From: Candidatus Eiseniibacteriota bacterium
GTDB lineage: Bacteria; Eisenbacteria; RBG-16-71-46; SZUA-252
Length of the DNA stretch: 64,000 nt
NCBI GenBank assembly: GCA_036505295.1
Contig: DASXTQ010000084.1
Span: forward strand, 511-64,510
Direction: 5' to 3'
Shown: in pieces, positions 3,193-62,838 of the stretch
Numbering within the stretch: position 1 is the first letter of the stretch
How the letters are laid out: each line of letters opens with the position of its first letter
Made by a program: the position numbers and the translations under genes
Notes under the pieces: generated by a model
The model's input: the letters and a program-made list of their open reading frames with translations, nothing else
Databases searched by the model: none
Told to the model about the DNA's origin: nothing

Positions 3193-4905
3193 TCATCCCT
3201 GCGCGGCGAGCTTTCGGTCTTCCGCCAGATTGACCAGATACTGCTGAAGCGCCGAAAGAAGGTTGTTCACGGTCCAGTAGAGGATCACTCCAGACGGAAA
3301 AGTATACATAAAGAAGAGCATAAACAGAGGCATCACGTACATCATGCCTTTCTGGGCCGGGGCGACAGGGGTCTGGGACTGCAGCACATACGTGCTGGCG
3401 GTCATGACGATAGGCATGAGGTGGATCGGGAAGCCGCCGATCGTGGCCAGCACGTCGGGAGCCGAGAGATCGCGAATGTAGCCGACGAACCCCGAAGCCC
3501 GGAGCTCGACGGAAAAGAGGAGCACGTTGTAGAGGGCGATGAAGACGGGTACTTGCAAGAGCATCGGCAAGCATCCGCTCATCGGGTTGACCTTGTTTTC
3601 CTTGTACAGGGCCATCATCGCCTGGTTGAGCTTCATCGGATCGCCTTTGTGCTTCTCCTGAAGCTCTTTGATCTTGGGCTGCAGGTGATGCATGACCTTC
3701 ATCGAGCGCAGGCTCGCTTGGGTGAGCGGGTAGAAGAGAAACTTGGTCGCCGCGGCCAGGATGATGATCGCGATGCCGTAGTTCGGGATCATCTTGTGGA
3801 GCAGATTCAGGCAGGTGAGCATGAGCACGCTGACGCCGCGCATCCACTTCCAACCCAGGTTCGCGACCTCGTCCAAGCCGGCTCCCACGGCCGCCAGCGT
3901 CTCGTAGTGGATTGGTCCCGCGTAGATACGCGCACGGCGCACCACCTCGCCGCCCGGAGGCGCGGCCCCGACGAACCACGCCGTCACGAGGCCGGATCCC
4001 GCGCTGCGAAAAACGACGTCCGAGACCGTTCCCGAGTCCGGAATGACCGCCGCGATGAAATACTTGCTGCGGCTCGCGACCCAGCGGACATTTCCCGGAG
4101 GGACGATGCGCTCTCCGTTCGGCCCCAGCTTCCCCGCCGGAAAGCTCTCGAGCTTGGTGCCGAGGAGAGCCACCGCCTGCAGCTGCTCCCGCTTGGTCGC
4201 CGCCTCCGTGATCGGAAGGGGCGCGCCCCATCCGATGCGATAACGAATGGGGCCCAGCTCGGGGGGCGCCGAAACACGAACGTCGCTCTCGAGGAGCTTC
4301 CGGTCCTGGCCCACCTGATAGCTCTTCACGACCCGGATGCCGCTCGAATCGACCGCCTCGAAGGTCAACGCGCCGCCGACCGGGTCGTCGTGCGTGATCC
4401 GGAATGGCGCGTTCGAGAAGTCGATCGCGCGCGCGCCGGCCTCCACGATGATCAGGAAGGCACGCGCGCCGGGCGAGACCAAGTCCACGGGCGCCTTCCG
4501 GATCTGGTCCTTGTAGGAGTCCAGAATCCAGTGAGAGATCGCTCCGCCTTCGCTTGTGAACTCCGCCCGGAAATGCTCGGTCTTCACCTCGCGGGTCTCG
4601 ATCGGTGCCGGCGAGACCCTGGCGCTGGTCAGGACGGCTCCCGTCGACAGGACGGCCGAGGTAGCGCCCCCGGGAGCCCCACTCGACGAACTGCCGGCGG
4701 GAGCCCCGGCCTGGGGCTCTCCTGAAACGGGCGTTTGCGCGCTCCCCTGAGGCTTGGGAAGCGACGGGGCAGGTTGCCCCGCCGTGCCGCCCGGCTGGGA
4801 CGGGACCGGTTTTCGGCGCGGGCGATAGAAATTCGGCGAGATCACCTGGTCCAGGAGCAGGACCATCATGATCATGACCATCGCGATGAGGACTTTACGA
4901 TCCAT
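3193..4905 (-). CDS. yidC: membrane protein insertase YidC
   Basis: 570 aa with an N-terminal TM, a large periplasmic domain and the conserved C-terminal core (MSGCLPMLLQVPVFIALYNVL...). Confidence 0.9.
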   Translation of the reverse strand: MDRKVLIAMVMIMMVLLLDQVISPNFYRPRRKPVPSQPGGTAGQPAPSLPKPQGSAQTPVSGEPQAGAPAGSSSSGAPGGATSAVLSTGAVLTSARVSPAPIETREVKTEHFRAEFTSEGGAISHWILDSYKDQIRKAPVDLVSPGARAFLIIVEAGARAIDFSNAPFRITHDDPVGGALTFEAVDSSGIRVVKSYQVGQDRKLLESDVRVSAPPELGPIRYRIGWGAPLPITEAATKREQLQAVALLGTKLESFPAGKLGPNGERIVPPGNVRWVASRSKYFIAAVIPDSGTVSDVVFRSAGSGLVTAWFVGAAPPGGEVVRRARIYAGPIHYETLAAVGAGLDEVANLGWKWMRGVSVLMLTCLNLLHKMIPNYGIAIIILAAATKFLFYPLTQASLRSMKVMHHLQPKIKELQEKHKGDPMKLNQAMMALYKENKVNPMSGCLPMLLQVPVFIALYNVLLFSVELRASGFVGYIRDLSAPDVLATIGGFPIHLMPIVMTASTYVLQSQTPVAPAQKGMMYVMPLFMLFFMYTFPSGVILYWTVNNLLSALQQYLVNLAEDRKLAAQG

Positions 4906-4923
4906 GACGTCGCCGCGATCCGT

Positions 4924-5169
4924 TCAAGGGACCGGGTCGTAACCTCCGGGGTGGAACGGATGGCAGCGAAGGACGCGGCCTACGATGAGGATCAACGCGC
5001 GTCGCAGCGGGCGCCGGGCCATCGCCTCTTCCGCGTAGGCGGCGCAGCTCGGCTCGAAGCGGCAGGAGCGTGGCAAGGAGGGAGAGATCGCCGCCCGGTA
5101 AAAGCGGATCAGGCACAAGAGGAGCCATCGTAGCCCCAAGGACGGGGTCGACCTCGCCTTTACGCTCAC
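4924..5169 (-). CDS. yidD: membrane protein insertion efficiency factor YidD
   Basis: 81 aa with the CRFEPSCAAYA motif. Overlaps rnpA by 4 nt. Confidence 0.85.
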   Translation of the reverse strand: MSVKARSTPSLGLRWLLLCLIRFYRAAISPSLPRSCRFEPSCAAYAEEAMARRPLRRALILIVGRVLRCHPFHPGGYDPVP

Positions 5170-5513
5170 GCGGGCTCCCGTCTCAGGAGCGCATTCATCT
5201 CGGCAGAGACGTCGTCGAACGTGGCGATCGAGCAGGCGCTTCGGGCGATCCAGACTCGCCAGGTCGCGCGGTCGCGCACGCCCGGGGAAACCTTCCGGAA
5301 TGCCTCCCTCAGGAGACGCTTCGCCCGATTCCGACGGACCGCGGGGCCGACCCTACGGCTGGCGACGAACGCGGTCCGGCCGTGGTCTGAGGTCCGCGGC
5401 ATGCTCACCAATGTCATCAGGCTGCCGTGAATGGACTTCCCTGATTGATACACTTCGCGGAATTGCCAGCCTTGGTGCAGGCGGCGATCGCGCGGTCGAA
5501 CCGCGCCGGGCAT
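5166..5513 (-). CDS. rnpA: RNase P protein component
   Basis: 115 aa, basic, with the RNRAKRLLREAFR motif. Sits between rpmH and yidD. Confidence 0.85.
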   Translation of the reverse strand: MPGAVRPRDRRLHQGWQFREVYQSGKSIHGSLMTLVSMPRTSDHGRTAFVASRRVGPAVRRNRAKRLLREAFRKVSPGVRDRATWRVWIARSACSIATFDDVSAEMNALLRREPA

Positions 5514-5538
5514 CCTGGCCTCGAGCCTTGGGGCGACG

Positions 5539-5673
5539 CTATACCGTGAGGCGTTTGCGGCCTCGTTCTCGGCGGCGTTTCAGAACGGCGCGGCCGCCTC
5601 GCGTGCTCATGCGCTCACGAAAGCCGTGCACCTTCTTTCGGCGGCGATTGTGGGGCTGAAACGTGCGCTTCAC
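5539..5673 (-). CDS. rpmH: 50S ribosomal protein L34
   Basis: Manual translation of the minus strand gives V(M)[43 protein letters not shown] (44 aa). GTG start. Not in the ORF track because it is too short. Confidence 0.9.
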
Positions 5674-5974
5674 GTGGATTGCCTCTGTCGTTGGGAACGG
5701 GATGGACCGAACACGAGCGTCGGATTCTAACGAATCGCTTGGAATCGGTCAATGCGAAAGCCCAGTGGCCGCAGGCGATACCGCGTCGCCAAAATTTTCG
5801 TTGCGCGGGCTGGAATCGCGAGCGTATTCTGCGGCCATCGCGAAGGCCGAGAGCGTGAATGCTTCTCTCGCGCTCCGGGTCCTCGCCGCACCGGGCTTCC
5901 CCCGCGCAAAACGACGCGCCCCTTCACCCGGACCTAAGAGTTGTGAGCATTCCTCAAGCCGATTTCCCTTCATT

Positions 5975-6011
5975 GGGGCGTAACGGTTTCCGACATTACC
6001 CGTTACGCCCC
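5975..6011. promoter_or_regulatory. Perfect 12-bp inverted repeat (GGGGCGTAACGG-N13-CCGTTACGCCCC) in the rpmH/dnaA divergent promoter region
   Basis: Read directly from the sequence. Lies 10 bp upstream of the paired DnaA boxes. Confidence 0.5.
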
Positions 6012-6019
6012 AATTCATT

Positions 6020-6050
6020 TGTGGATAAATGTGTGGATAAGCGGTGGACA
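6020..6050 (+). promoter_or_regulatory. DnaA-box cluster upstream of dnaA (autoregulatory site)
   Basis: Two perfect TGTGGATAA boxes (the reverse of TTATCCACA) at 6020-6028 and 6032-6040, plus a degenerate GGTGGACAC box at 6042-6050. Confidence 0.7.
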
Positions 6051-7408
6051 CCCTGTGCGGGGATGGGGACGACATGACGACGATGGAAACGATGGTGGCC
6101 GGAGACATCTGGCAGGGCTCGCTCGAAAAGATTCAATCCCACATCTCAAGCCAAGCATTTGAAACATGGTTCCGCTCTCTCGATCCCCTGGAGTTTGACG
6201 GATCCGCGCTCGTTCTGGAGGTGCCGAGCCAGTTCTACGTCGACTGGCTGGATCACCATTACCGGGGGCTCATCGAATCCTCCCTCTCCGCGACGGCGGG
6301 GCGTCCGGTCGCTCTTTCCTTTCACGTCCGTTCCGTCGACGTTCCCGTTTTCGAGGAGCGCCCGCGCGGGCCGCTGCCCGGCAGGATCGAGTGCTACCTA
6401 AGCCCGCATAACACCTTCGAAACCTTTATCGTGGGCAGCGGCAATCAGTTCGCCCACGCGGTGGCGCAGGCGGTCGCGCAGAGTCCAGGGGAACGTTACA
6501 ACCCGCTCTTTCTCTACGGCGGCGTCGGGCTGGGGAAGACCCATCTCATGCACGCGATCGGCCACCAGGTACGCGCCACGCGACCCCAGGCGCGGGTCTT
6601 TTTCGTGAGCGCCGAGAAGTTCATGAACGAGATGATTTACGCCATCCAGCACGCCACGACCCTCGAATTCAAGAGCCGCTACCGCACTGCCGACGTTCTC
6701 CTCATCGATGACATCCAGTTCCTCGCAGGAAAGGAGAGCACGCAGGAGGAGTTCTTTCACACCTTCAACACGCTCCACGACGCGCATAGGCAGATCGTCC
6801 TCACGAGCGACGGCCCGCCGAACGCGATGACCGCGATCGAGGAGCGGCTTGTCTCCCGGTTCACCTGGGGCGTGGTCGCCGATCTGCAGGCTCCCGATCT
6901 CGAAACGCGCGTGGCGATCGTCAAGAAGAAGGCCGAGCTGCAGGGCAGGAACATACCGAACGAGATCGCGCTTCTCCTGGCGAGCAACATCAAGACCAAC
7001 ATCCGCGATCTGGAAGGCTCGCTCTCGCGGCTCCTCGCGTTCGCGGACCTCATGAGCCACGAGCTGACCATCGAGTTCGCACAGGAGGTGCTGCGCGATC
7101 AGATCAAGCCCGATCTCGCCCGGGTCGACCTCTCCGACATCCAGCGACTGGTCGCGAGGCATTTCAACGTCACGGAAGAGTCGATCCGCGGCAAACGCCG
7201 CACCGACGTCATCGCCTTCCCGCGCCAGGTGGGCATGTACATCGCCCGAGCGGTCACCGATCTCTCCTTCCAGGAGATCGGAGCGAAATTCGGCGGCCGC
7301 GACCATTCCACGGTGCTTCATGCCTGCCACAAGATCGAAGGGCTGATGACGACAGACAAGGAACTCAGGGTCGTTGTCGAAGACCTCATGGCGAGCCTGA
7401 GCACGTAA
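6044..7408 (+). CDS. dnaA: chromosomal replication initiator DnaA
   Basis: AAA+ Walker A (GGVGLGKTHL), the DnaA signature and a C-terminal DNA-binding domain. The true start may be the ATG at 6074 (MTTMETMVAG...), because 6044 overlaps the DnaA boxes. Confidence 0.9.
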   Translation: MDTLCGDGDDMTTMETMVAGDIWQGSLEKIQSHISSQAFETWFRSLDPLEFDGSALVLEVPSQFYVDWLDHHYRGLIESSLSATAGRPVALSFHVRSVDVPVFEERPRGPLPGRIECYLSPHNTFETFIVGSGNQFAHAVAQAVAQSPGERYNPLFLYGGVGLGKTHLMHAIGHQVRATRPQARVFFVSAEKFMNEMIYAIQHATTLEFKSRYRTADVLLIDDIQFLAGKESTQEEFFHTFNTLHDAHRQIVLTSDGPPNAMTAIEERLVSRFTWGVVADLQAPDLETRVAIVKKKAELQGRNIPNEIALLLASNIKTNIRDLEGSLSRLLAFADLMSHELTIEFAQEVLRDQIKPDLARVDLSDIQRLVARHFNVTEESIRGKRRTDVIAFPRQVGMYIARAVTDLSFQEIGAKFGGRDHSTVLHACHKIEGLMTTDKELRVVVEDLMASLST

Positions 7409-51957: not shown

Positions 51958-52344
51958 TCAGGTGGTCCTCTTCGCGTATCGATCGGCGCCCAAGAAGTGA
52001 AGCGAGACATACGGCAAGGCGCCGACAACCCAGGAATCGTGAGGGATCGGCGGGATATGAAAGAGCTCTCCAGCCTGCAATTCGATGACCTTGCCATCGT
52101 CAAACGACACCGCCGCGGTTCCGGCGAGGACCAGCCCCACGTGCTCGACCGTGCACCGCTCTGCTCCCACGCTCGGCCCGACGTGTTCGGACCACCGCCA
52201 CCCGGGCTCGTAAGACGCCCGACCGATCGTGAGACCGCCGATGTGAACCAGCTCGAAGCGGCCCTTGAGCATTTCGCGGACCTCGTCGGGCGTCTCGAAT
52301 CGCTTCAAGATGACATCGATGTTTCGCACGTCTCCCCCGGTCAT
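51958..52344 (-). CDS. cupin domain protein
   Basis: Approximately 128 aa, small beta-barrel pattern (start MTGGDVRN). Confidence 0.5.
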   Translation of the reverse strand: MTGGDVRNIDVILKRFETPDEVREMLKGRFELVHIGGLTIGRASYEPGWRWSEHVGPSVGAERCTVEHVGLVLAGTAAVSFDDGKVIELQAGELFHIPPIPHDSWVVGALPYVSLHFLGADRYAKRTT

Positions 52345-55177: not shown

Positions 55178-55693
55178 CTAGCCAGGCTGACCGTCGATCA
55201 GCCGTCGTTGATCGCGAATGCTGTCAACGCGAGACAATTTCCAGCCCTCAGAAGTCCTTCTCCAGATCTCGCGCTGCGTGACCCATGTCTCCACATGGTG
55301 CACCAGACCGTCATTCCGGCGCGCGATTCGGTCGGCATGCTGGCGTACGACCGCACGCGCGAGGTCGCCGGAGACTTCGAGGCTATCGATCTCGAAGGTC
55401 AGCGAAATCCAGCGGTCGATTCCATCAAGGAGCGCGCGGGTGGATTTCTCCATCTCGGCGCGGTAGTGCAGCACGCTGTCCGGGGTCACGGCGTGAAAGT
55501 CTTCTGTTCGGAGCGCCATGATGGCGTTGAAATCCTTTGCGAGGAAGGCGCGTCGATTTTCGTCATACCGCTGCTGCAGCTCGCGCCGAACGGCGGCCGA
55601 ATCCAGTGTGCTCAGGTGCTGTGAGGGGGGCGATTTGGCAGGACCAGCGCAACCCATCGCGCAGACCATGGCCATCGCCAGGAAGAAACGCAT
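55178..55693 (-). CDS. SnoaL-like/NTF2-like (DUF4440-type) lipoprotein
   Basis: Start MRFFLAMAMVCAMGCAG at 55693. About 170 aa with an alpha+beta cone pattern. Confidence 0.45.
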   Translation of the reverse strand: MRFFLAMAMVCAMGCAGPAKSPPSQHLSTLDSAAVRRELQQRYDENRRAFLAKDFNAIMALRTEDFHAVTPDSVLHYRAEMEKSTRALLDGIDRWISLTFEIDSLEVSGDLARAVVRQHADRIARRNDGLVHHVETWVTQREIWRRTSEGWKLSRVDSIRDQRRLIDGQPG

Positions 55694-55739
55694 CGCGGGC
55701 ACTATTCTGATCACCCACCAAGAAGATAGCAAAACGTCC

Positions 55740-55768
55740 TTGACAACTGCACAAATGTGCACTATCCT
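55740..55768 (+). promoter_or_regulatory. lexA promoter (TTGACA-N17-TATCCT) with an embedded palindrome TGCACAAATGTGCA (55748-55761), candidate LexA operator
   Basis: Read directly. The perfect TGCNC-N4-GNGCA palindrome overlaps the spacer. The lexA ATG is 8 nt after the -10 element. Confidence 0.6.
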
Positions 55769-55775
55769 ATGTGTC

Positions 55776-56516
55776 ATGAGCAAGCCCAATCCGCCCAGGA
55801 CGCCGGGGGGTGCCCGGAAACGCAAGCCCAAGCGGTTTGCCGCGATCGACATGGGGGCCGATCGCGAGCAGGCGGTCCTCGACATGATCGCGGGGTCGCT
55901 TCGCGAGCAGGGCCGGCCGCCCACGATTCGTGAAATCGGGGAAGCCTTCGGGATCGCCTCGACGAACGGGGTCCGCTACTACCTGGACCGCCTCGAGCGG
56001 GCGGGGAAGATCCACCGGGACCGATGGACCTCGCGTGGGATCGAGCTCAAGGCGATCCCGGGAGGCGCCGCCGCGAGAGCATCCGTCCCCGCGGTCCGTC
56101 CCATTCCCGAACACACCACCCCACGCAACGCGATCGAAATTCCATTGCTGGGCCGCGTGGCCGCCGGCGCGCCGATTCTCGCCGAGGAAAACGTAGAGGA
56201 CGTGCTCATCGTAGACGGCGCGTTCGTGCGGCCCGGCAAGCATTTCGCTCTCCGCGTGCGTGGGGACAGCATGAAGAACGCGGGGATCCTGGATGGCGAC
56301 ATCGCGATCGTGCACCACGACGCGCCGGTCAAAAGCGGAGAGATCGCGGTCGTGGTGATCGGCGAGGAAGCGACCGTGAAGCGCTTCTTTCCGCGCCGCG
56401 ACAAGCTCCTCCTGATCCCTGAGAACGAGGACTACGAGCCGATCGAGGTGCGTCCGTCCGATCCGGAAGTGCGGGTCGCGGGCAAGGTGGTGGGGGTTTT
56501 CCGGAGGCTTGGCTGA
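55776..56516 (+). CDS. lexA: SOS repressor LexA (S24 peptidase) with a basic N-terminal extension
   Basis: wHTH, an Ala-Gly cleavage site (VAAGAP), and the Ser (GDSM) and Lys (VKRF) catalytic dyad. Confidence 0.9.
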   Translation: MSKPNPPRTPGGARKRKPKRFAAIDMGADREQAVLDMIAGSLREQGRPPTIREIGEAFGIASTNGVRYYLDRLERAGKIHRDRWTSRGIELKAIPGGAAARASVPAVRPIPEHTTPRNAIEIPLLGRVAAGAPILAEENVEDVLIVDGAFVRPGKHFALRVRGDSMKNAGILDGDIAIVHHDAPVKSGEIAVVVIGEEATVKRFFPRRDKLLLIPENEDYEPIEVRPSDPEVRVAGKVVGVFRRLG

Positions 56517-56812
56517 TGGTCCATGCGAACTCATTTCCCAAGGCAAGCGACGGTTACTTCATGATCGAGTCGATCCACGATCCCATCGAAGTCATCACGA
56601 TGTTCGGAAACGGGAAGATGCGTCCCATCCGATTCCGCTGGAAGAACAAGATCGTGAAGGTGGCCAAGGTGACGGGCGATTGGGTTCGCCACGAGGGGCA
56701 GAACAAGATCCACTACTTCGCGCTCCTGGCGGACAGCTCGGATTACTACGAGATCTGCTACAACGCGAAGGACATGACCTGGCAGCTCACCCGCGTTTGG
56801 ATGGAAGGGTGA
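56516..56812 (+). CDS. hypothetical 98-aa protein translationally coupled between lexA and dinB
   Basis: ATG overlaps the lexA stop (TGATG). Ends 6 nt before the dinB GTG. Lys/Asn/Tyr-rich and lower GC (~50% in the first 60 nt). No recognisable family. Confidence 0.55.
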   Translation: MVHANSFPKASDGYFMIESIHDPIEVITMFGNGKMRPIRFRWKNKIVKVAKVTGDWVRHEGQNKIHYFALLADSSDYYEICYNAKDMTWQLTRVWMEG

Positions 56813-56818
56813 CAGGCG

Positions 56819-58015
56819 GTGCGGGTCGTTCTGCACCTCGACATGGACTCGTTTTTCGCCTCGGTGGAGGAGAAGCTGAACCCGCGCCTCAAGGGGAAGC
56901 CGATCCTCGTGGGTGGCACCGAGCGGCGCGGTGTCGTCGCCTCGGCGAACTACGCGGCGCGCCCGTTCGGGATCCACGCCGGTATGCCCATGGCGGAGGC
57001 GAAACGGCTCTGCCCGCACGCGGTCTTCGTCGAGGGTAACCCGCAGAAGTACGTCCACACCTCGCTCCAAGTCCTCGACGTTCTGAAGAGCTTCACCCCC
57101 GCGGTCGAGCCCTTCAGCATCGATGAGGCGTTCCTCGATCTCACCCAGGTCCCGTATGCGGGGAAGCCAGGCGCGGAGGAGCGCGATCCCGCTGTGATCC
57201 TCGACTCCGCGATCCCGGTCGCCCACGCGATCCAGCGCGCGGTCCAGCGACGCGTCGGACTCACCGCCACGATCGGCATCGCGCCCAACAAATACATCGC
57301 GAAGATGGCGAGCGGCGTGCAGAAGCCGCGCGGCCTCACGGTGCTGACGCTCGAACGATACCGGGAGCGTTTCTGGGGCCGCAGCGTCCAGGAGCTGTGG
57401 GGGATTGGCGAGAAGACTAGGGAAGCGCTCGCCAAACTCGGGATCCGGACCATCGGGCAGCTCGCGAAATTCCCGCGTGAGTTTCTCACGTACCACTTCG
57501 GGTTGAACGGCGAGAACATGCAGGAGGCGGCTCTCGGTCGCGACGAGAACGCGGTCGTTCCGTACTACGAGGGGATCCCGGTAAAATCGATGGGGCACGA
57601 GATCACGCTTTCGGAGGACGTCGCCGACAAAGACGCGCTCTCAGCGCAGCTTCTTCGCCTGAGCGACATGGTCGGGCGGCGGCTCCGAGCGGACCACTAC
57701 CTGGGAAGGATCATCTCGGTGAAGATCCGCGATGCGAAATTCCGCACCACAATCCGCCAGCGCGCGCTTCCCTCGGTCATAGACGACGAGCACGAGATTT
57801 TCCACACGGCTTCGTTGCTGCTCGAGGAGCACTGGGACGGGCGGCCGTTGCGGTTGATCGGCGTGTCGGTCTCGGGGTTGGTCTCGGCCGAAGGACATTA
57901 CCAGCACAGCCTCTTCGACCAGGACGAGCATCGGCGGAAAATGCTCGAAGCGGTGGATTCTTTGCGGGATCGCTTCGGAGAGCACGCTCTCGTGAAGGCG
58001 GGAGTGCTCTGGTGA
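56819..58015 (+). CDS. dinB: DNA polymerase IV (Y-family translesion polymerase)
   Basis: GTG start. LHLDMDSFFASVE catalytic DxD, and a little-finger domain. Confidence 0.9.
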   Translation: MRVVLHLDMDSFFASVEEKLNPRLKGKPILVGGTERRGVVASANYAARPFGIHAGMPMAEAKRLCPHAVFVEGNPQKYVHTSLQVLDVLKSFTPAVEPFSIDEAFLDLTQVPYAGKPGAEERDPAVILDSAIPVAHAIQRAVQRRVGLTATIGIAPNKYIAKMASGVQKPRGLTVLTLERYRERFWGRSVQELWGIGEKTREALAKLGIRTIGQLAKFPREFLTYHFGLNGENMQEAALGRDENAVVPYYEGIPVKSMGHEITLSEDVADKDALSAQLLRLSDMVGRRLRADHYLGRIISVKIRDAKFRTTIRQRALPSVIDDEHEIFHTASLLLEEHWDGRPLRLIGVSVSGLVSAEGHYQHSLFDQDEHRRKMLEAVDSLRDRFGEHALVKAGVLW

Positions 58016-58043
58016 TGCGGGCGTCTGCGACGAGGTCCTGCCC

Positions 58044-58955
58044 ATGATCCTCCTCGGGACTTCGGGGTATTCCTACCCGGACTGGTACGGGGTGTTCTAC
58101 CCGCCGGGCCTCGAGCGCGCGAAGCAGCTCGACTTCTACGTCCGCCAGTTCAAGACGGTCGAGGTCAACTCGACGTATTACCGGATTCCGCCTCCATCGA
58201 CATTCGCAGCCATGGAACGGAAGACGCCCGCAGATTTCGAGTTCGTCGTGAAGGCGCACTCCGAGATGACCCACAAGCAGACGCGCGACCCCGAGGTGTA
58301 CGAGGCGTTCCAGGCAGCGATGGCACCCCTGCGCACGGCGCGGAAGCTGAGCGGCGTGCTCGCGCAGTTTCCCCAATCATTCCATCGGTCGGATGACCAC
58401 GAGCAGTTCCTCGTGGAGATGCAGGAGCGCCTGGAGGGCGCCCCGCTCTTCGTCGAGTTTCGGCACAACTCGTGGATGAAGGAGGACGTGTTCGAGTTCC
58501 TGGAGCGCGCGAGCCTGGGATACGTCAGCGTGGACGAGCCTTCGCTTCCCGGGCTCCTCCCGCCCGTCGCTCGCGCGACAGGGGCGCTCGCCTACGTCCG
58601 ATTTCACGGGCGGAATGCGAAAAGCTGGTACTCGGGAGATGAGGGCGGCGGCAAAGGTGCGGGGACCGGAGGCGCGGGGACCCGAGGTGCGGGGGCCCGA
58701 GACGCAGGGACCAGAGACAGCACTCCCGCGCGCCCAGCCCGCGACCGGCAGCTCCTTCGTTACGACTATCTCTACTCCGAGGCGGAGCTCAAGGAGTGGG
58801 CGGATAAGATCCGCGATCTGAATCAGAAGACTCAGAAGACCTTCGTCTTCTTCAACAATTGTCACGCAGGGCAGGCCGCGACCAGCGCCAAGCTCATGCG
58901 CACTCTTCTTGGAATGGCTGAGCCGAACGTGGCAGAACAGACAGGACTCTTGTGA
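58044..58955 (+). CDS. DUF72 (YecE/UPF0759) family protein with a Gly-rich low-complexity insertion
   Basis: N-terminal MILLGTSGYSYPDWYGVFYP, typical of DUF72. Confidence 0.75.
   Translation: MILLGTSGYSYPDWYGVFYPPGLERAKQLDFYVRQFKTVEVNSTYYRIPPPSTFAAMERKTPADFEFVVKAHSEMTHKQTRDPEVYEAFQAAMAPLRTARKLSGVLAQFPQSFHRSDDHEQFLVEMQERLEGAPLFVEFRHNSWMKEDVFEFLERASLGYVSVDEPSLPGLLPPVARATGALAYVRFHGRNAKSWYSGDEGGGKGAGTGGAGTRGAGARDAGTRDSTPARPARDRQLLRYDYLYSEAELKEWADKIRDLNQKTQKTFVFFNNCHAGQAATSAKLMRTLLGMAEPNVAEQTGLL
58657..58716. repeat. four imperfect 15-bp tandem repeats (gYgcgggRRcccgag-like) encoding a (GAGTR)n linker inside the DUF72 gene
   Basis: Read directly. Confidence 0.6.
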
Positions 58956-59137
58956 TGGTCGCTCTGCGTGCGCTGACGGTGGCCGAGCGCTCGCCTGATT
59001 ACGCCACCCCGCCCCGCCTGCTTGCGGTCACGCCATCGCCCTGGCCTTGCGAACGCCGCCCTCGGCTGTCTTTGTCTGTGCCACATACGCCGGCCCCGCC
59101 GCCTCCTCCGGCCAACCACCCCGGTACAGGTGATGCC

Positions 59138-60337
59138 ATGCCGAACTATTCATTGACCCACCTTGGTGACGCGGACCTCGTTCGTCAGCTTGCCGCGCTG
59201 GTGAATCGGGACCGCGCGACCACGGCCATGCTGCTGGCCCACATCGCCGAAGTGGACGATCGTGGGTTGTACCGGCCCCCTGGATACCCCTCCATGCACG
59301 CCTACTGCATGGGGGAGTTGCGGTTCTCAGAGGACGCCGCCTACAAGCGAATCCGTGCGGCGCGCGCGGGACGCAAATTTCCAGTGCTGTTCGCGGCGCT
59401 TGCCGACGGTCGGTTCCATCTGGCGGCCCCCTACTTGCTGGCACCTCACTTCACTCTGGAGAACGTGGACGAGCTGATACAGGCGGCCACACACCGGAGC
59501 AAATCCGACATCGAAGAGCTGATCGCCCGGCGATTCGGTGTCCCTGGATCGCCGATCAGCCTGCGTCCGTTGATCCGCGCTGTCGCGCCGATCCCTCCTC
59601 CGACGCCCAGCGCCCAGCTCATGACGGCAACCGGGAACGACGATTCGCCTGCAGGGGAGTCCCTGACGTGCGATACGCAGCTGGCGATGGCGCCAGAGCC
59701 ATCCCATCAGAAGGACTACGGACAACTGGCCCCGGGGCCAGTTGAGGGCACTCAAGTCCAATCCCTGTCTCAGAATTGCCCAGTGTTTCTCGTAAGGCTC
59801 ACGGTTCCGAAGAGCACGTGCGACAAGCTGCACTACGCCCAGTCGCTGCTCAGCCATGCGGTGCCTGCGGGGGACCTGGCCCAAGTTTTCGACCGGGCCC
59901 TGGACGCTCTGATCTCACAACTCGAGGTGCGGAAGCTTGGTGCCAGTACTCGCGACCTGCGGGGTCGTGAGGAGCACGCGCCGGCGTCTGGCGTAGGCAG
60001 GGCGTCCCGCTACATTCCCGCCGCGGTCCGACGCGCGGTCTGGGAGCGCGATCAAGGGCGCTGCACCTTCGTCAGCATCACCGGAGGCCGATGCAGGTCT
60101 CGCCGATTCCTGGAAATGGATCACGTTGTACCGGCCGCTCGAGGTGGGAAGGCGACGATGGAGAACCTCCGGCTGAGATGCAGCGCGCACAACCAGTACG
60201 AGGCGGAGCGCGCGTTCGGGGTGGATTTCATAAGACGCAAGCGCCAGGAGGCGTTCGCGACGGCCACGGCTCGCGATCTCTCCAAGGCTCCCGCCGCACC
60301 CTCCGCCGCCGAAGAGAACCGCGAGGATCCAGCATGA
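59138..60337 (+). CDS. HNH endonuclease with an N-terminal DUF222-like domain (REP13E12-type architecture)
   Basis: C-terminal HNH (CTFVSITGGRC...LEMDHVVPAARGG...CSAHNQYEAER). The N-terminal helical region resembles DUF222. Likely start is MPNYSLT at 59138. The stop overlaps the next start (ATGA). Confidence 0.7.
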   Translation: MPNYSLTHLGDADLVRQLAALVNRDRATTAMLLAHIAEVDDRGLYRPPGYPSMHAYCMGELRFSEDAAYKRIRAARAGRKFPVLFAALADGRFHLAAPYLLAPHFTLENVDELIQAATHRSKSDIEELIARRFGVPGSPISLRPLIRAVAPIPPPTPSAQLMTATGNDDSPAGESLTCDTQLAMAPEPSHQKDYGQLAPGPVEGTQVQSLSQNCPVFLVRLTVPKSTCDKLHYAQSLLSHAVPAGDLAQVFDRALDALISQLEVRKLGASTRDLRGREEHAPASGVGRASRYIPAAVRRAVWERDQGRCTFVSITGGRCRSRRFLEMDHVVPAARGGKATMENLRLRCSAHNQYEAERAFGVDFIRRKRQEAFATATARDLSKAPAAPSAAEENREDPA

Positions 60338-62838
60338 TCAGTAATCGCACTCATCCCGCACAGCAGGCCGTCGGCCTCAGCGAATTATTCGAGCCTGAGC
60401 CGCGACCCATGGTGACGAGCGTCGAATCAGTCGAGGAATTCCGGGCAATGCTGCTCGCGCTTCAAGAGGGCGGGGCGCGCGGGTCGGGCCGTGGGCGTGG
60501 CGCCACGAGCCCCAACGGTGCACACTCTCGCATTGGCGAGCGTACCGTACGCAACCCGCGACCCTACGATCAGCCCGAGCTTGTCCACGCGGAATCGCTC
60601 CCCGCGCGCCCCGCGCGCTACGCCGATCTCGCCGAGCCGCTTCCTCGCGCGCTCGCGCACGTCCTCGCCGCACAGGGGATCGCCCGCCTCTACGCGCACC
60701 AAGCGCAGGCGATCGACCTCGCGCGCGCGGGGAAACACGTCGTCGTCGCGACCGGCACCGCTTCGGGGAAATCGCTCGCGTATCACATCCCGGTTCTCGA
60801 GCGTCTTCTCCTCGAGCAGCCGGCCACCGCGCTCTATCTCTTCCCGACGAAGGCGCTCGCGCAGGATCAGCTTCGGGGGCTGCACCGATTCGCGGACGGC
60901 TCGCACGACCTCGCGCGCGTGCTCGCGACCGGTTCCTACGATGGGGACACGCCGGGCTCGGCACGGAGGAAGCTCCGCGAAACCGGAAACGCGATTCTCA
61001 CGAACCCCGACATGCTTCACCAGGGGATCCTCCCGTACCACGCGCGCTGGGGGCGGTTCTTCACGAACCTCCGTTACGTTGTCGTGGACGAAGTGCACAC
61101 ATACCGCGGCATCTTCGGCTCGCACGTGGCGAACGTGCTCCGGCGGCTCAGGCGCATCGCGCGACACTACGGCGCGGAGCCTCAGTTCCTCTGCTCCTCG
61201 GCCACACTCCGGAACCCTCAAGAGCTGGCAGAGCTTCTGGTCGGCGACGACGTCCACGTCGTCGATCAGGACGGCTCACCGCGCGGCCCCAAGCTCTTTG
61301 CCTTCTGGAATCCACGCACGTACGGGCCCGACTCACCCGAGCGCCGGAGTGCCTCCATCGATGCCGAGCGGATGCTGGTCGCGCTGCTCCGGCGCGGAGT
61401 GCAGTCCATCGTGTTCACGAAGGCGCGGGTCGTCGCCGAGCTGATCTACCGTTACGCCCGCGAGCGCCTGGAGCGCGAATCGCGCGGACTGGCGGACCTC
61501 TTGAGCCCCTACCGCGGCGGCTACCTACCCGAGGAGCGCCGCGCCATCGAGCGGCGCCTCTTCGACGGGGAGCTTCGCGGCGTGATCTCGACCAACGCGC
61601 TCGAGCTGGGCATCGACGTCGGCACCCTCGACGCCTCGATTCTGGTCGGTTTCCCGAACACGATCGCAAGCACGTGGCAGCAGGCGGGGCGCTCGGGCCG
61701 GAAGCAGGCGCCTTCGCTCGCGGTCGTGGTCGCGTACGAGGATCCGGTCGACCAGTACCTCATGCGGCATCCGAGCTACTTCTTCGGACAGTCGCCGGAG
61801 AGCGCGGTGCTGGACCCGGAGAATCCCTATGTGCTCGCCTCGCAGCTTTCCTGCGCTGCCTACGAGCTGCCGCTGAGCGAGGAGGACGAGGCGATATTCG
61901 GAAGCCGCGCGCCCGCGATCGCGTCGCTCCTCGAGGAGGAGGGTTCGTTCAAGTCCCTCGACGGCCTCCGCTACTGGTCCTCGGCCGAGTACCCGGCGGG
62001 CAGCGTGAACCTGCGCACCATCTCCGACGACACGTTCACCATCCTCGACCAGACGCGCGAGAACGCGGTGCTCGGCACGGTCGATTCGATCAGCGCGCCG
62101 GAGCTGTTATATCCAGAAGCAATCTATCTTCACGAAGGCGACACCTATTTCGTCCGCGATCTTGATTTAAAGCAAAAGATTGCCTACGTCGAGCCGCGCG
62201 AGGTGGACTACTACACGCAGCCTGTGCTCGACACGCACCTGAAGCTCGAGGAGACGCGCGAATCGAAGAAGCTCGGAGACGAGACGATCGGGCTTGGACC
62301 TGCCGGAGTCTCCTGGGCGACCGTCGCGATGAAGAAGATTCGCTTCCGGAGTCTCGATGCAATCGGCTATCACCCGCTCGACCTTCCGCGGCAGAAATTG
62401 GACACGATGGCGCTTTGGATTCAGCCCTCCGAGGGCACGCGAAACCATGTCAAGATCGCAGGGCTCAACCCGCGCGAGGGGATGTCGGGGCTACGAAACC
62501 TCCTCATCACGGTGCTGCCGCTCCACGTCATGTGCGACCGGCCCGATATCGGCGGGATCCTGGACAGAGCCAACCTCGGCGAGCCGACCATCTTCATGTA
62601 CGACCGCTACCCTGGCGGTTTGGGGTACGCCGAGCGCGGATACGCGATCGTCGGGGAGCTGTTGAGCGCGTCGCTCCGGCTGGTCGAGGACTGCCCGTGC
62701 GAGCTGGGATGCCCCTCTTGCGTGGGGCTCCCGATCATGCGGCCCGCGCAGCAGCAGGATCCCGATTTGTATGGCGGCTGGCCGATCCCAAGCAAGGCCG
62801 CGACCCTGGCACTGTTGCGGCGGATGCTCGGCCGGTGA
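60334..62838 (+). CDS. mrfA: MrfA/YprA-like DEXH-box helicase with a C-terminal DUF1998 Cys4 domain
   Basis: Walker A GTASGKS, DEVH box, helicase C, and a C-terminal CPCELGCPSC zinc cluster. Alternative start at 60409. Confidence 0.8.
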   Translation: MISNRTHPAQQAVGLSELFEPEPRPMVTSVESVEEFRAMLLALQEGGARGSGRGRGATSPNGAHSRIGERTVRNPRPYDQPELVHAESLPARPARYADLAEPLPRALAHVLAAQGIARLYAHQAQAIDLARAGKHVVVATGTASGKSLAYHIPVLERLLLEQPATALYLFPTKALAQDQLRGLHRFADGSHDLARVLATGSYDGDTPGSARRKLRETGNAILTNPDMLHQGILPYHARWGRFFTNLRYVVVDEVHTYRGIFGSHVANVLRRLRRIARHYGAEPQFLCSSATLRNPQELAELLVGDDVHVVDQDGSPRGPKLFAFWNPRTYGPDSPERRSASIDAERMLVALLRRGVQSIVFTKARVVAELIYRYARERLERESRGLADLLSPYRGGYLPEERRAIERRLFDGELRGVISTNALELGIDVGTLDASILVGFPNTIASTWQQAGRSGRKQAPSLAVVVAYEDPVDQYLMRHPSYFFGQSPESAVLDPENPYVLASQLSCAAYELPLSEEDEAIFGSRAPAIASLLEEEGSFKSLDGLRYWSSAEYPAGSVNLRTISDDTFTILDQTRENAVLGTVDSISAPELLYPEAIYLHEGDTYFVRDLDLKQKIAYVEPREVDYYTQPVLDTHLKLEETRESKKLGDETIGLGPAGVSWATVAMKKIRFRSLDAIGYHPLDLPRQKLDTMALWIQPSEGTRNHVKIAGLNPREGMSGLRNLLITVLPLHVMCDRPDIGGILDRANLGEPTIFMYDRYPGGLGYAERGYAIVGELLSASLRLVEDCPCELGCPSCVGLPIMRPAQQQDPDLYGGWPIPSKAATLALLRRMLGR

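Follow-up and report, generated by a model that had tools for sequence, protein, structure and literature searches.

A standalone ImuB-C family gene between lexA and dinB of Candidatus Eisenbacteria and a candidate LexA operator for the phylum

Introduction

The window analysed here, a stretch of 64,000 nucleotides (nt) from a Candidatus Eiseniibacteriota bacterium (assembly GCA_036505295.1, contig DASXTQ010000084.1, positions 511 to 64,510 of the forward strand), harbours a small open reading frame (ORF) squeezed between lexA and the Y-family DNA polymerase gene dinB, and raises the question of what its 98-residue product might do at such a place. In public records the identical protein is listed as "hypothetical protein" or "Uncharacterized protein" (TMQ53406.1, TMQ62142.1, HEY3156645.1, UniRef100_A0A538SPV8). 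The original prediction, made from the sequence alone, likewise recognised no family in it, and proposed a new accessory factor or regulator of DNA polymerase IV (pol IV), citing the YafN/YafO/YafP genes of Escherichia coli as an analogy. As described below, the product is not an orphan but matches the ImuB-C family, which, both as a fused part of ImuB and as a separate protein, is one of the most poorly understood components that recur in bacterial error-prone polymerase systems. The gene is accordingly referred to as imuB-C. The family is thus a named one and related to translesion synthesis.

Family membership of the ORF product

Profile comparisons provide good support for the placement of the ORF product in the standalone, GSU0042-like branch of the ImuB-C family. 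A query profile of 70 sequences (the ORF product and 69 relatives) was compared by hhalign with GSU0042 of Geobacter sulfurreducens, the archetype of the standalone proteins, the sequence of which was taken from the supplement of PMC12926913, and the two aligned end to end (residues 17-96 against 1-80) with a probability of 99.1% and an E-value of 1.2e-18. Direct BLASTP comparison of the ORF product with GSU0042 gave 28% identity (E 1e-11). In hmmsearch the family hidden Markov model scored 70 bits for GSU0042, 60 bits for ADR18603 of Calditerrivibrio and 22 bits for CUH93807 of Herbinix, all of which bear the ImuB-C label in PMC12926913.

The superfamily was defined by Aravind and colleagues (PMC3765255) as all-beta proteins with a C-terminal tryptophan that is highly conserved and two or more conserved basic residues, its small members being encoded mostly beside dinB and often with lexA too. 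In the 70-sequence alignment the C-terminal tryptophan, W89, is invariant (70/70), basic residues (Lys or Arg) are found at positions 39, 45 and 93 in 79, 84 and 81% of the sequences, respectively, aromatic residues are conserved at several positions, and no polar residues of catalytic type stand out by their conservation.

Among the Pfam models the ORF product matched DUF6504 (PF20114, profile positions 5-85 of 103) with 20.9 bits and an E-value of 4.4e-4, which is below the gathering score of 24.2. The same model is matched at E<=0.01 by 53 of the 70 family members (best 8.7e-9), and relatives such as L054 (24.7 bits) pass the gathering score. As judged from these scores, the ORF product is a divergent relative of DUF6504 and not a curated member. 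The equation of DUF6504 with ImuB-C was considered and found to be only partly true: the model recognises neither GSU0042 nor the Deinococcus/Chloroflexi-type ImuB-C proteins, and detected one (E 0.009) of the four ImuB tails tested. It therefore covers only part of the ImuB-C superfamily. A literature search on DUF6504 found no paper mentioning it.

The YafN/YafO/YafP genes lie downstream of dinB in E. coli, and a toxin-antitoxin pair is among them. By analogy alone, as a small gene probably co-transcribed with dinB, the ORF could be proposed to encode a toxin, an antitoxin or a modulator of mutagenesis of that kind. However, the Pfam and NCBIfam matches contain no toxin or antitoxin family, the profile comparison points to ImuB-C, and the gene is a single one rather than half of a pair and holds a fixed position in an SOS cassette across phyla, which makes such a function most improbable.

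Predicted fold

The AlphaFold2 model of the ORF product, built from the 70-sequence alignment, is all-beta with six strands, and has a predicted local distance difference test score (pLDDT) of 89.4 and a predicted template modelling score (pTM) of 0.82; residues 1-9 are modelled with low pLDDT. According to this model, the protein would be a beta-barrel of approximately 80 residues, which bears the invariant C-terminal tryptophan and the conserved basic residues and has no catalytic motif. The Foldseek search of the model against the PDB returned only noise, none of it better than E 0.18 (FabZ, CRABP, the DnaK substrate-binding domain and others). No credible relative came out of a profile search of PDB sequences either. 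A weak PDB sequence match to a fucose-binding lectin (E 0.012, with repeats) was judged spurious. The absence of PDB relatives agrees with the description of ImuB-C in PMC12926913 as a beta-barrel of novel fold without a close PDB relative.

Reality of the gene and its start codon

The layout given by the original prediction was confirmed in the sequence. The ATG of the ORF (56516-56518) shares its A with the lexA TGA (56514-56516) in a TGATG overlap, and 6 nt (caggcg) separate its own TGA (56810-56812) from the dinB GTG at 56819. The unusual composition that had been noticed is also real. The first 60 nt have a guanine-plus-cytosine (GC) content of 50.0% and the ORF as a whole one of 55.6%, whereas lexA has 67.2% and dinB 64.6%, and only 2% of the 60-nt windows across the whole stretch of 64 kb are at or below 50%. 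The product contains 8.2% Lys, 8.2% Ile, 5.1% Asn and 5.1% Tyr, as compared with 4.8, 6.4, 2.0 and 2.0% in the flanking proteins, and is enriched in Trp and Phe as well. At third codon positions the GC content (GC3) of the ORF, 83.8%, is close to that of lexA (83.4%) and dinB (85.0%), and the low overall GC therefore reflects amino-acid composition; foreign origin or non-coding DNA as its source was rejected on account of this agreement with the neighbours.

A search of 5.8 billion proteins yielded 18 close homologues with 71-91% identity, most of them exactly 98 residues long, and 429 relatives at E<=0.001 were obtained when 1.84 billion cluster representatives were scanned in full with HMMER. 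Using a 14-sequence alignment, 80 loci were retrieved from GTDB species representatives; the nearest relatives (71-100% identity) come mostly from metagenome-assembled genomes (MAGs) of Candidatus Eisenbacteria, and the distant ones (33-53% identity) mostly from Calditrichota and KSB1. The neighbourhood counts given below cover 88 loci in all. Across 21 orthologues the ratio of nonsynonymous to synonymous substitution rates (dN/dS) of the ORF is 0.17, with most variable sites at third codon positions. The ORF is a real gene. The view that it might be a non-coding spacer or a spurious ORF could appeal to its GC content, lower than that of the neighbouring genes, but is refuted by the conservation of the gene and hardly credible in the face of this dN/dS value, the third-position variation, a GC3 like that of the flanks, hundreds of homologues and a confident fold prediction.

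All 33 Candidatus Eisenbacteria orthologues keep the ATG with GGAGG 8 nt before it, whether or not the gene is preceded by lexA. The first 15 residues constitute a clade-specific N-terminal extension; it is missing from most relatives that do not belong to the Eisenbacteria clade, in which the protein begins at the position corresponding to Met16. Among the orthologues, the extension has accumulated many synonymous changes. For codons 2-15, dN/dS is 0.21, and variable sites are found at 13/14 third positions versus 7/14 first and 5/14 second positions, so that the extension is under purifying selection. The form of 83 amino acids (aa) beginning at Met16 is found in several Joint Genome Institute (JGI) gene calls that belong to the same 90% cluster. 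A start at Met16 (ATG 56561) was nevertheless rejected for the Eisenbacteria clade, and ATG 56516 is the better choice there, because of the conserved ATG with its fixed GGAGG spacing, the conserved 15-residue pattern and the purifying selection on the upstream codons.

Operon structure and putative SOS control

The features of the region are listed in Table 1. The TTGACA-N17-TATCCT element before lexA is the only promoter-like site in the interval 55500-60500, and no terminator-like site on the + strand was found in this scanned interval, hence none between lexA, imuB-C and dinB. Together with the Shine-Dalgarno sequence of the gene and its overlap with the lexA stop, this supports the co-expression that the original prediction had assumed.

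Table 1. Annotated features of the lexA-imuB-C-dinB region (positions in the window)
Feature	Position	Strand	Remarks
Sigma-70-like promoter TTGACA-N17-TATCCT	55740..55768	+	10/12 consensus matches
Putative LexA operator, perfect palindrome TGCACAAATGTGCA	55748..55761		In promoter spacer, 28 nt before lexA ATG
lexA (246 aa)	55776..56516	+	LexA_DNA_bind and Peptidase_S24; TIGR00498 at 1.9e-53; start taken at ATG 55776
Shine-Dalgarno GGAGG of imuB-C	56503..56507	+	Within lexA 3' end; 8 nt before ATG; same spacing in 33 orthologues
imuB-C (standalone ImuB-C family protein, 98 aa)	56516..56812	+	Homology, profile, model, dN/dS
Clade-specific N-terminal extension, residues 1-15	56516..56560	+	Pattern M-[VLI]-H-A-x-[ST]-F-P-x3-[DS]-G-Y-F
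Shine-Dalgarno-like GGAAGGG for dinB	56803..56809	+	Made by last imuB-C codons tgg atg gaa ggg (W-M-E-G)
dinB, Y-family DNA polymerase (398 aa)	56819..58015	+	IMS and IMS_C; DMDSFF and SIDEAF motifs
QHSLF, clamp-binding-like pentapeptide, DinB residues 362-366	57902..57916	+	Aligns with Geobacter PolY QLPLF and E. coli UmuC QLNLF
RecA-NT-like motif KMLEAVDSLRDRFGEHALVKAG, DinB residues 374-395	57938..58003	+	Aligns with RecA N-termini and with GeoPolY and UmuC motifs
DUF72 gene	58044..58955	+	DUF72 6.6e-63; starts 28 nt after dinB

The palindrome TGCACAAATGTGCA in the promoter spacer is likely to be the LexA box of this phylum, as far as can be judged from comparison of loci. It is similar to the LexA box of Fibrobacter succinogenes, TGCNCN4GTGCA, a pattern that occurs three times in the window as against 0.31 expected occurrences. 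In the Eisenbacteria loci with an exact match, the box lies 22-43 nt upstream of lexA, and the orthologous loci have preserved the whole promoter-operator module in front of that gene. A second match to the pattern in the window, at 52142-52155 (TGCTCGACCGTGCA), is non-palindromic.

The same module follows the genes of the cassette when they part. In all seven loci where imuB-C has no adjoining lexA (L023, L026, L028, L033, L034, L036, L037), the arrangement cTTGACAac-TGCACAAATGTGCA-gTATCnT is found 71-124 nt upstream of imuB-C, and it also stands 71-95 nt upstream of dinB in eight (L009, L013, L021, L025, L030, L031, L033, L035) of the nine loci in which that gene is 0.9-4 kb distant. Relics of the 3' end of the former upstream gene travel with the moved one: a lexA-like 3' end is found before unlinked imuB-C, and the coding sequence for QLTRVWMEG and a stop precedes dinB in L021 and L030. 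Comparison of the loci thus speaks strongly for a retention of all three genes, imuB-C among them, under one and the same putative operator. Since imuB-C has a promoter-operator module of its own when unlinked, it would be an SOS regulon member in its own right.

Transcription would thus begin at the TTGACA-N17-TATCCT promoter and yield one transcript carrying lexA, imuB-C, dinB and probably the DUF72 gene, with the spacer palindrome as the probable site of LexA binding; upon DNA damage, RecA-stimulated self-cleavage of LexA would switch on all genes of the operon together. Only 7 nt separate the -10 hexamer from the lexA ATG (55768-55776), and the lexA message may for this reason be leaderless; the distance from the box to the start is similar in the orthologues. 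Translation of imuB-C would start at ATG 56516 by means of the GGAGG within the 3' end of lexA, overlapping the lexA stop, and the last imuB-C codons would serve as the ribosome-binding site for dinB 6 nt further on. In 14 loci (the window and 13 orthologous ones) a TGA is followed by exactly 6 nt of variable sequence and then by the dinB ATG or GTG. Translation looks coupled at both junctions of imuB-C, and the three proteins would be made by coupled translation. The reading frames of imuB-C and dinB are the same, separated by the TGA and the 6-nt spacer (56810-56821 in the window). If the TGA were read through, the product would be a fusion with ImuB-C N-terminal to PolY.

The downstream polymerase

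The identities given to lexA and dinB by the original prediction agree with the family models (TIGR00498 and NF002677, respectively). The pol IV model NF002677 scores 294 bits on DinB against a cutoff of 256, and the polymerase appears from its sequence to be catalytically competent. Near its C-terminus DinB carries the pentapeptide QHSLF, a motif of the known beta-clamp-binding kind, and further downstream a RecA-NT-like motif, in the alignment of which Gly387 is invariant. The GeoPolY and UmuC motifs aligned with the latter were taken from PMC6511836 and PMC12926913, the comparison being an alignment of short motifs and not a statistical test.

Gene neighbourhoods and possible function

Homologues of imuB-C do recur beside lexA and dinB. 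Of 36 informative Eisenbacteria-type loci, imuB-C abuts lexA in 27, is separated from it by a SnoaL-like gene in two more and is unlinked in seven. In 18 distant loci, belonging to Calditrichota, KSB1 and unclassified MAGs (33-53% identity), the gap between imuB-C and the polymerase gene is -4 to 27 nt. Many Calditrichota loci have lexA approximately 0.5-1.6 kb upstream, in several of them with an S24-like gene devoid of a helix-turn-helix (HTH) domain in between, and lexA is absent from some distant flanks. Across the 88 loci, a Y-family polymerase is by far the commonest neighbour, and most loci have lexA upstream and a Y-family polymerase downstream. The polymerase thus appears to be the recurrent close partner across phyla, and all members of the cassette appear to be SOS-controlled.

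On these grounds, and by analogy with the systems discussed below, ImuB-C is probably a non-catalytic small subunit or regulator of an SOS-induced PolY-RecA translesion complex, produced from a LexA-repressed operon. It would bind the co-expressed Y-family polymerase, which bears the clamp-binding-like and RecA-NT-like motifs, to form a PolY-ImuB-C-RecA translesion complex, and would control the activity or recruitment of that complex; an analogous role has been proposed for the fused ImuB-C in ImuA-ImuB-DnaE2. In a 2026 survey, Timinskas and Venclovas presented AlphaFold-Multimer models of PolY-ImuB-C-RecA with an interface pTM (ipTM) of ~0.83 for Geobacter (PMC12926913).

Several observations weigh against this assignment. 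In Eisenbacteria-type loci dinB follows imuB-C at 6 nt in only 15 cases; in nine it is 0.9-4 kb downstream, and in approximately ten it is not seen in the available flank, so that translational coupling to the polymerase is not required. The DinB of the window ends three residues after the RecA-NT-like motif (...VKAGVLW), whereas GeoPolY examples have 14-27 further residues, and this extra C-terminal tail has been suggested as a possible ImuB-C contact in the Geobacter group (PMC6511836). Lacking a tail of this type, DinB is not placed in the GeoPolY-like group. The published PolY-ImuB-C-RecA models concern other species only (PMC12926913), and no experiment defines the function of any standalone ImuB-C protein (PMC8072749). 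Finally, the hhalign comparison of the family with ImuB tails, which were copied from a paper supplement and make up small target alignments of 7-15 sequences, gave a probability of 45% (E 2.2e-4) for seven ImuB1 tails, 63% (E 7.1e-5) for ImuB1 and ImuB2 tails together and 0.9% for actinobacterial ImuB2 tails alone. The register of the alignment is sensible, the shared features being P..F.W.G+.Y.V, GPW and the C-terminal tryptophan, and Aravind and colleagues in 2013 gave similarly weak E-values for the ImuB link (PMC3765255). None of the 120 proteins listed by the profile search of the 5.8-billion-protein set is a fused ImuB, all being standalone small proteins. The more remote relationship with the domain fused in true ImuB proteins is thus only weakly reproduced here, and its main basis is the published analyses.

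The idea of a pol IV accessory or regulator survives as the best-supported reading, less its novelty, the family being a described one. In Eisenbacteria, imuB-C stands more often beside lexA than beside dinB, and the idea therefore cannot rest on adjacency alone.

The preference for lexA brings up a partnership of ImuB-C with LexA or RecA instead of the polymerase, for instance the tuning of LexA self-cleavage or of RecA filament activity. The start of imuB-C overlaps or abuts the lexA stop in the 27 loci mentioned, some of which have no dinB in the available flank, and the fused ImuB-C domain contacts the RecA homologue ImuA in models of ImuA-ImuB-DnaE2 (PMC12926913). However, it is the polymerase to which the gene is tightly joined in the distant loci, with lexA remote or absent from the flank, seven Eisenbacteria loci have imuB-C without adjoining lexA, and adjacency to lexA is expected for any first gene of an SOS cassette. 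Such a role seems very unlikely.

According to the proposal of Aravind and colleagues, ImuB-C could alternatively be a general SOS-induced DNA-binding or damage-sensing adaptor, which recruits several repair activities and is not a dedicated subunit. The frequent Lys/Arg at positions 39, 45 and 93 (79-84%), the conserved aromatics and the lack of conserved catalytic-type polar residues would suit an adaptor, as would the retention by imuB-C of its own putative LexA-box promoter in the seven loci where it is unlinked from lexA and dinB. Published neighbourhoods include Ku/ligase, SplB photolyase and SRAP besides polymerases (PMC3765255), and dinB is followed by the DUF72 gene and, in L006, by an Hrq1-like helicase gene. 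On the other side, no recognisable DNA-binding fold emerged from the Foldseek comparison with the PDB, the Y-family polymerase dominates the neighbourhoods of the 88 loci, and the published multimer models put ImuB-C on the polymerase-RecA assembly (PMC12926913). A general adaptor is consequently regarded as rather unlikely, if worth keeping in view.

The conserved N-terminal arm and the retention of imuB-C at the lexA stop where dinB has moved away led us to consider a dual-purpose SOS factor as well, in which the arm would lie in the polymerase cleft like the arms of UmuD' and YolD, and the barrel would engage RecA or LexA. This is quite doubtful; if true, ImuB-C would represent a third, independently evolved "UmuD-like" regulatory solution, and the in-frame junction of TGA and 6 nt would permit an occasional read-through ImuB-C-PolY fusion.

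The locus extends the lexA-imuB-C-polY cassette to Candidatus Eisenbacteria and, more distantly, to Calditrichota and KSB1. It also provides comparative evidence for imuB-C as an SOS regulon member and a candidate LexA operator for the phylum. These are useful facts for annotation and for the description of the regulon, and leave the current picture of translesion synthesis unchanged.

Further features of the loci

In most Eisenbacteria loci, as well as in the distant locus L039, a DUF72 gene comes after dinB, and this gene is the probable fourth member of the lexA-imuB-C-dinB unit. The start of the DUF72 gene and the stop of dinB overlap in L006 and L007; in L006 the next gene is the helicase gene mentioned above (3687-6883), with DEAD, Helicase_C, WHD_HRQ1 and MZB domains. 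In the window, the stop of the DUF72 gene is overlapped by a 461-aa ORF (58952-60337), the C-terminus of which looks HNH-endonuclease-like by eye (...DHVVPAARGG...NLRLRCSAHN...).

The genomes of the two closest relatives, L010 (gene at 4568-4954) and L011, have a SnoaL_2/DUF4440 gene of 128 aa inserted precisely where lexA meets imuB-C. A copy of the 17-nt junction CGGAGGCTTGGCTGATG flanks the insert on either side, the corresponding junction of the window being 56500-56518. Owing to this duplication, it is the SnoaL_2/DUF4440 gene that now overlaps lexA in a TGATG, and imuB-C retains a Shine-Dalgarno sequence and an ATG of its own.

In Calditrichota, L054 (4414-4848) and L050 (3795-4241) encode an S24 peptidase-like protein of 144-148 aa without HTH domain, in the order lexA, S24-like gene, imuB-C, polY. 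The S24-like protein of L054 has RAMDDG where LexA has the catalytic GDSM, and may be inactive. No description of the combination of a UmuD-like protein with ImuB-C was found in the literature examined.

The genes inserted between imuB-C and a distant dinB are unrelated and lie on the minus strand (for example MqsA-like antitoxin, methyltransferase, HAD hydrolase). In L009, the minus strand at 1080-1855 is taken up by a gene for an MqsA-like antitoxin (HTH_3/MqsA_antitoxin) and, next to it, an ORF of 97 aa, and the dinB beyond this insert has its own putative LexA-box promoter. On L005 (JGI contig Ga0137420_1365194), lexA/imuB-C is present in two diverged copies that are oriented oppositely, and the gene calls are fragmented; the fragments, seen as tblastn pieces with lexA split from the S24 part and a 207-aa IMS fragment, look like a frameshifted or chimeric assembly.

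Comparison with known systems

The YafN/YafO/YafP genes of the E. coli dinB operon resemble imuB-C of the window in being small and, as is probable for imuB-C, co-transcribed with dinB. They differ in that the window gene is a single one located upstream of dinB, and shares no sequence or profile similarity with them (Pfam, NCBIfam).

A closer parallel in role is offered by UmuD' of Pol V and by YolD/YqjX from Gram-positives, which are small SOS-induced non-catalytic partners encoded beside a Y-family polymerase with a RecA-NT-like motif, and in both of which the N-terminal arm is functionally important (PMC12926913). Their core, however, is SH3-like, whereas ImuB-C is described as a different barrel (PMC12926913), and the Pfam scan of the ORF product showed no S24 peptidase domain and no sequence similarity to UmuD' or YolD/YqjX.

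ImuB's C-terminal domain in the ImuA-ImuB-DnaE2 mutasome is proposed to belong to the same superfamily (PMC3765255), and is likewise an all-beta barrel without PDB relative. In contrast to the mutasome, the domain is here a separate protein, which is paired with a polymerase predicted to be catalytically competent, and there is no dnaE2 or imuA in the operon.

The closest counterpart is the Geobacter GSU0042 (AAR33377) system. The two have in common a core of approximately 80 residues aligned from end to end, the same conservation of tryptophan and basic residues, the order lexA, imuB-C and active Y-family polymerase, and the clamp-binding-like and RecA-NT-like motifs. They differ in phylum, that of the window being Candidatus Eisenbacteria (further relatives belong to mostly uncultured groups, Calditrichota and KSB1 among them), and show the modest sequence identity of 28% to GSU0042; the protein of the window has in addition its conserved 15-residue N-terminal arm, and its DinB is without the GeoPolY-type tail. 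The putative operator of the window is TGCAC-N4-GTGCA, and the LexA box of Geobacter is a different one. In Geobacter, the operon of lexA, imuB-C and polY is reported to be damage-induced and transcribed as a single unit, according to the evidence cited in PMC6511836, and LexA-ImuB-C-PolY operons were listed by Timinskas and Venclovas (PMC6511836), the arrangement being described in PMC3765255 and PMC12926913 as well. What is known already is therefore the lexA-imuB-C-polY arrangement; what is new is the phylum, the candidate LexA operator, the duplication of this operator before unlinked genes and the N-terminal arm.

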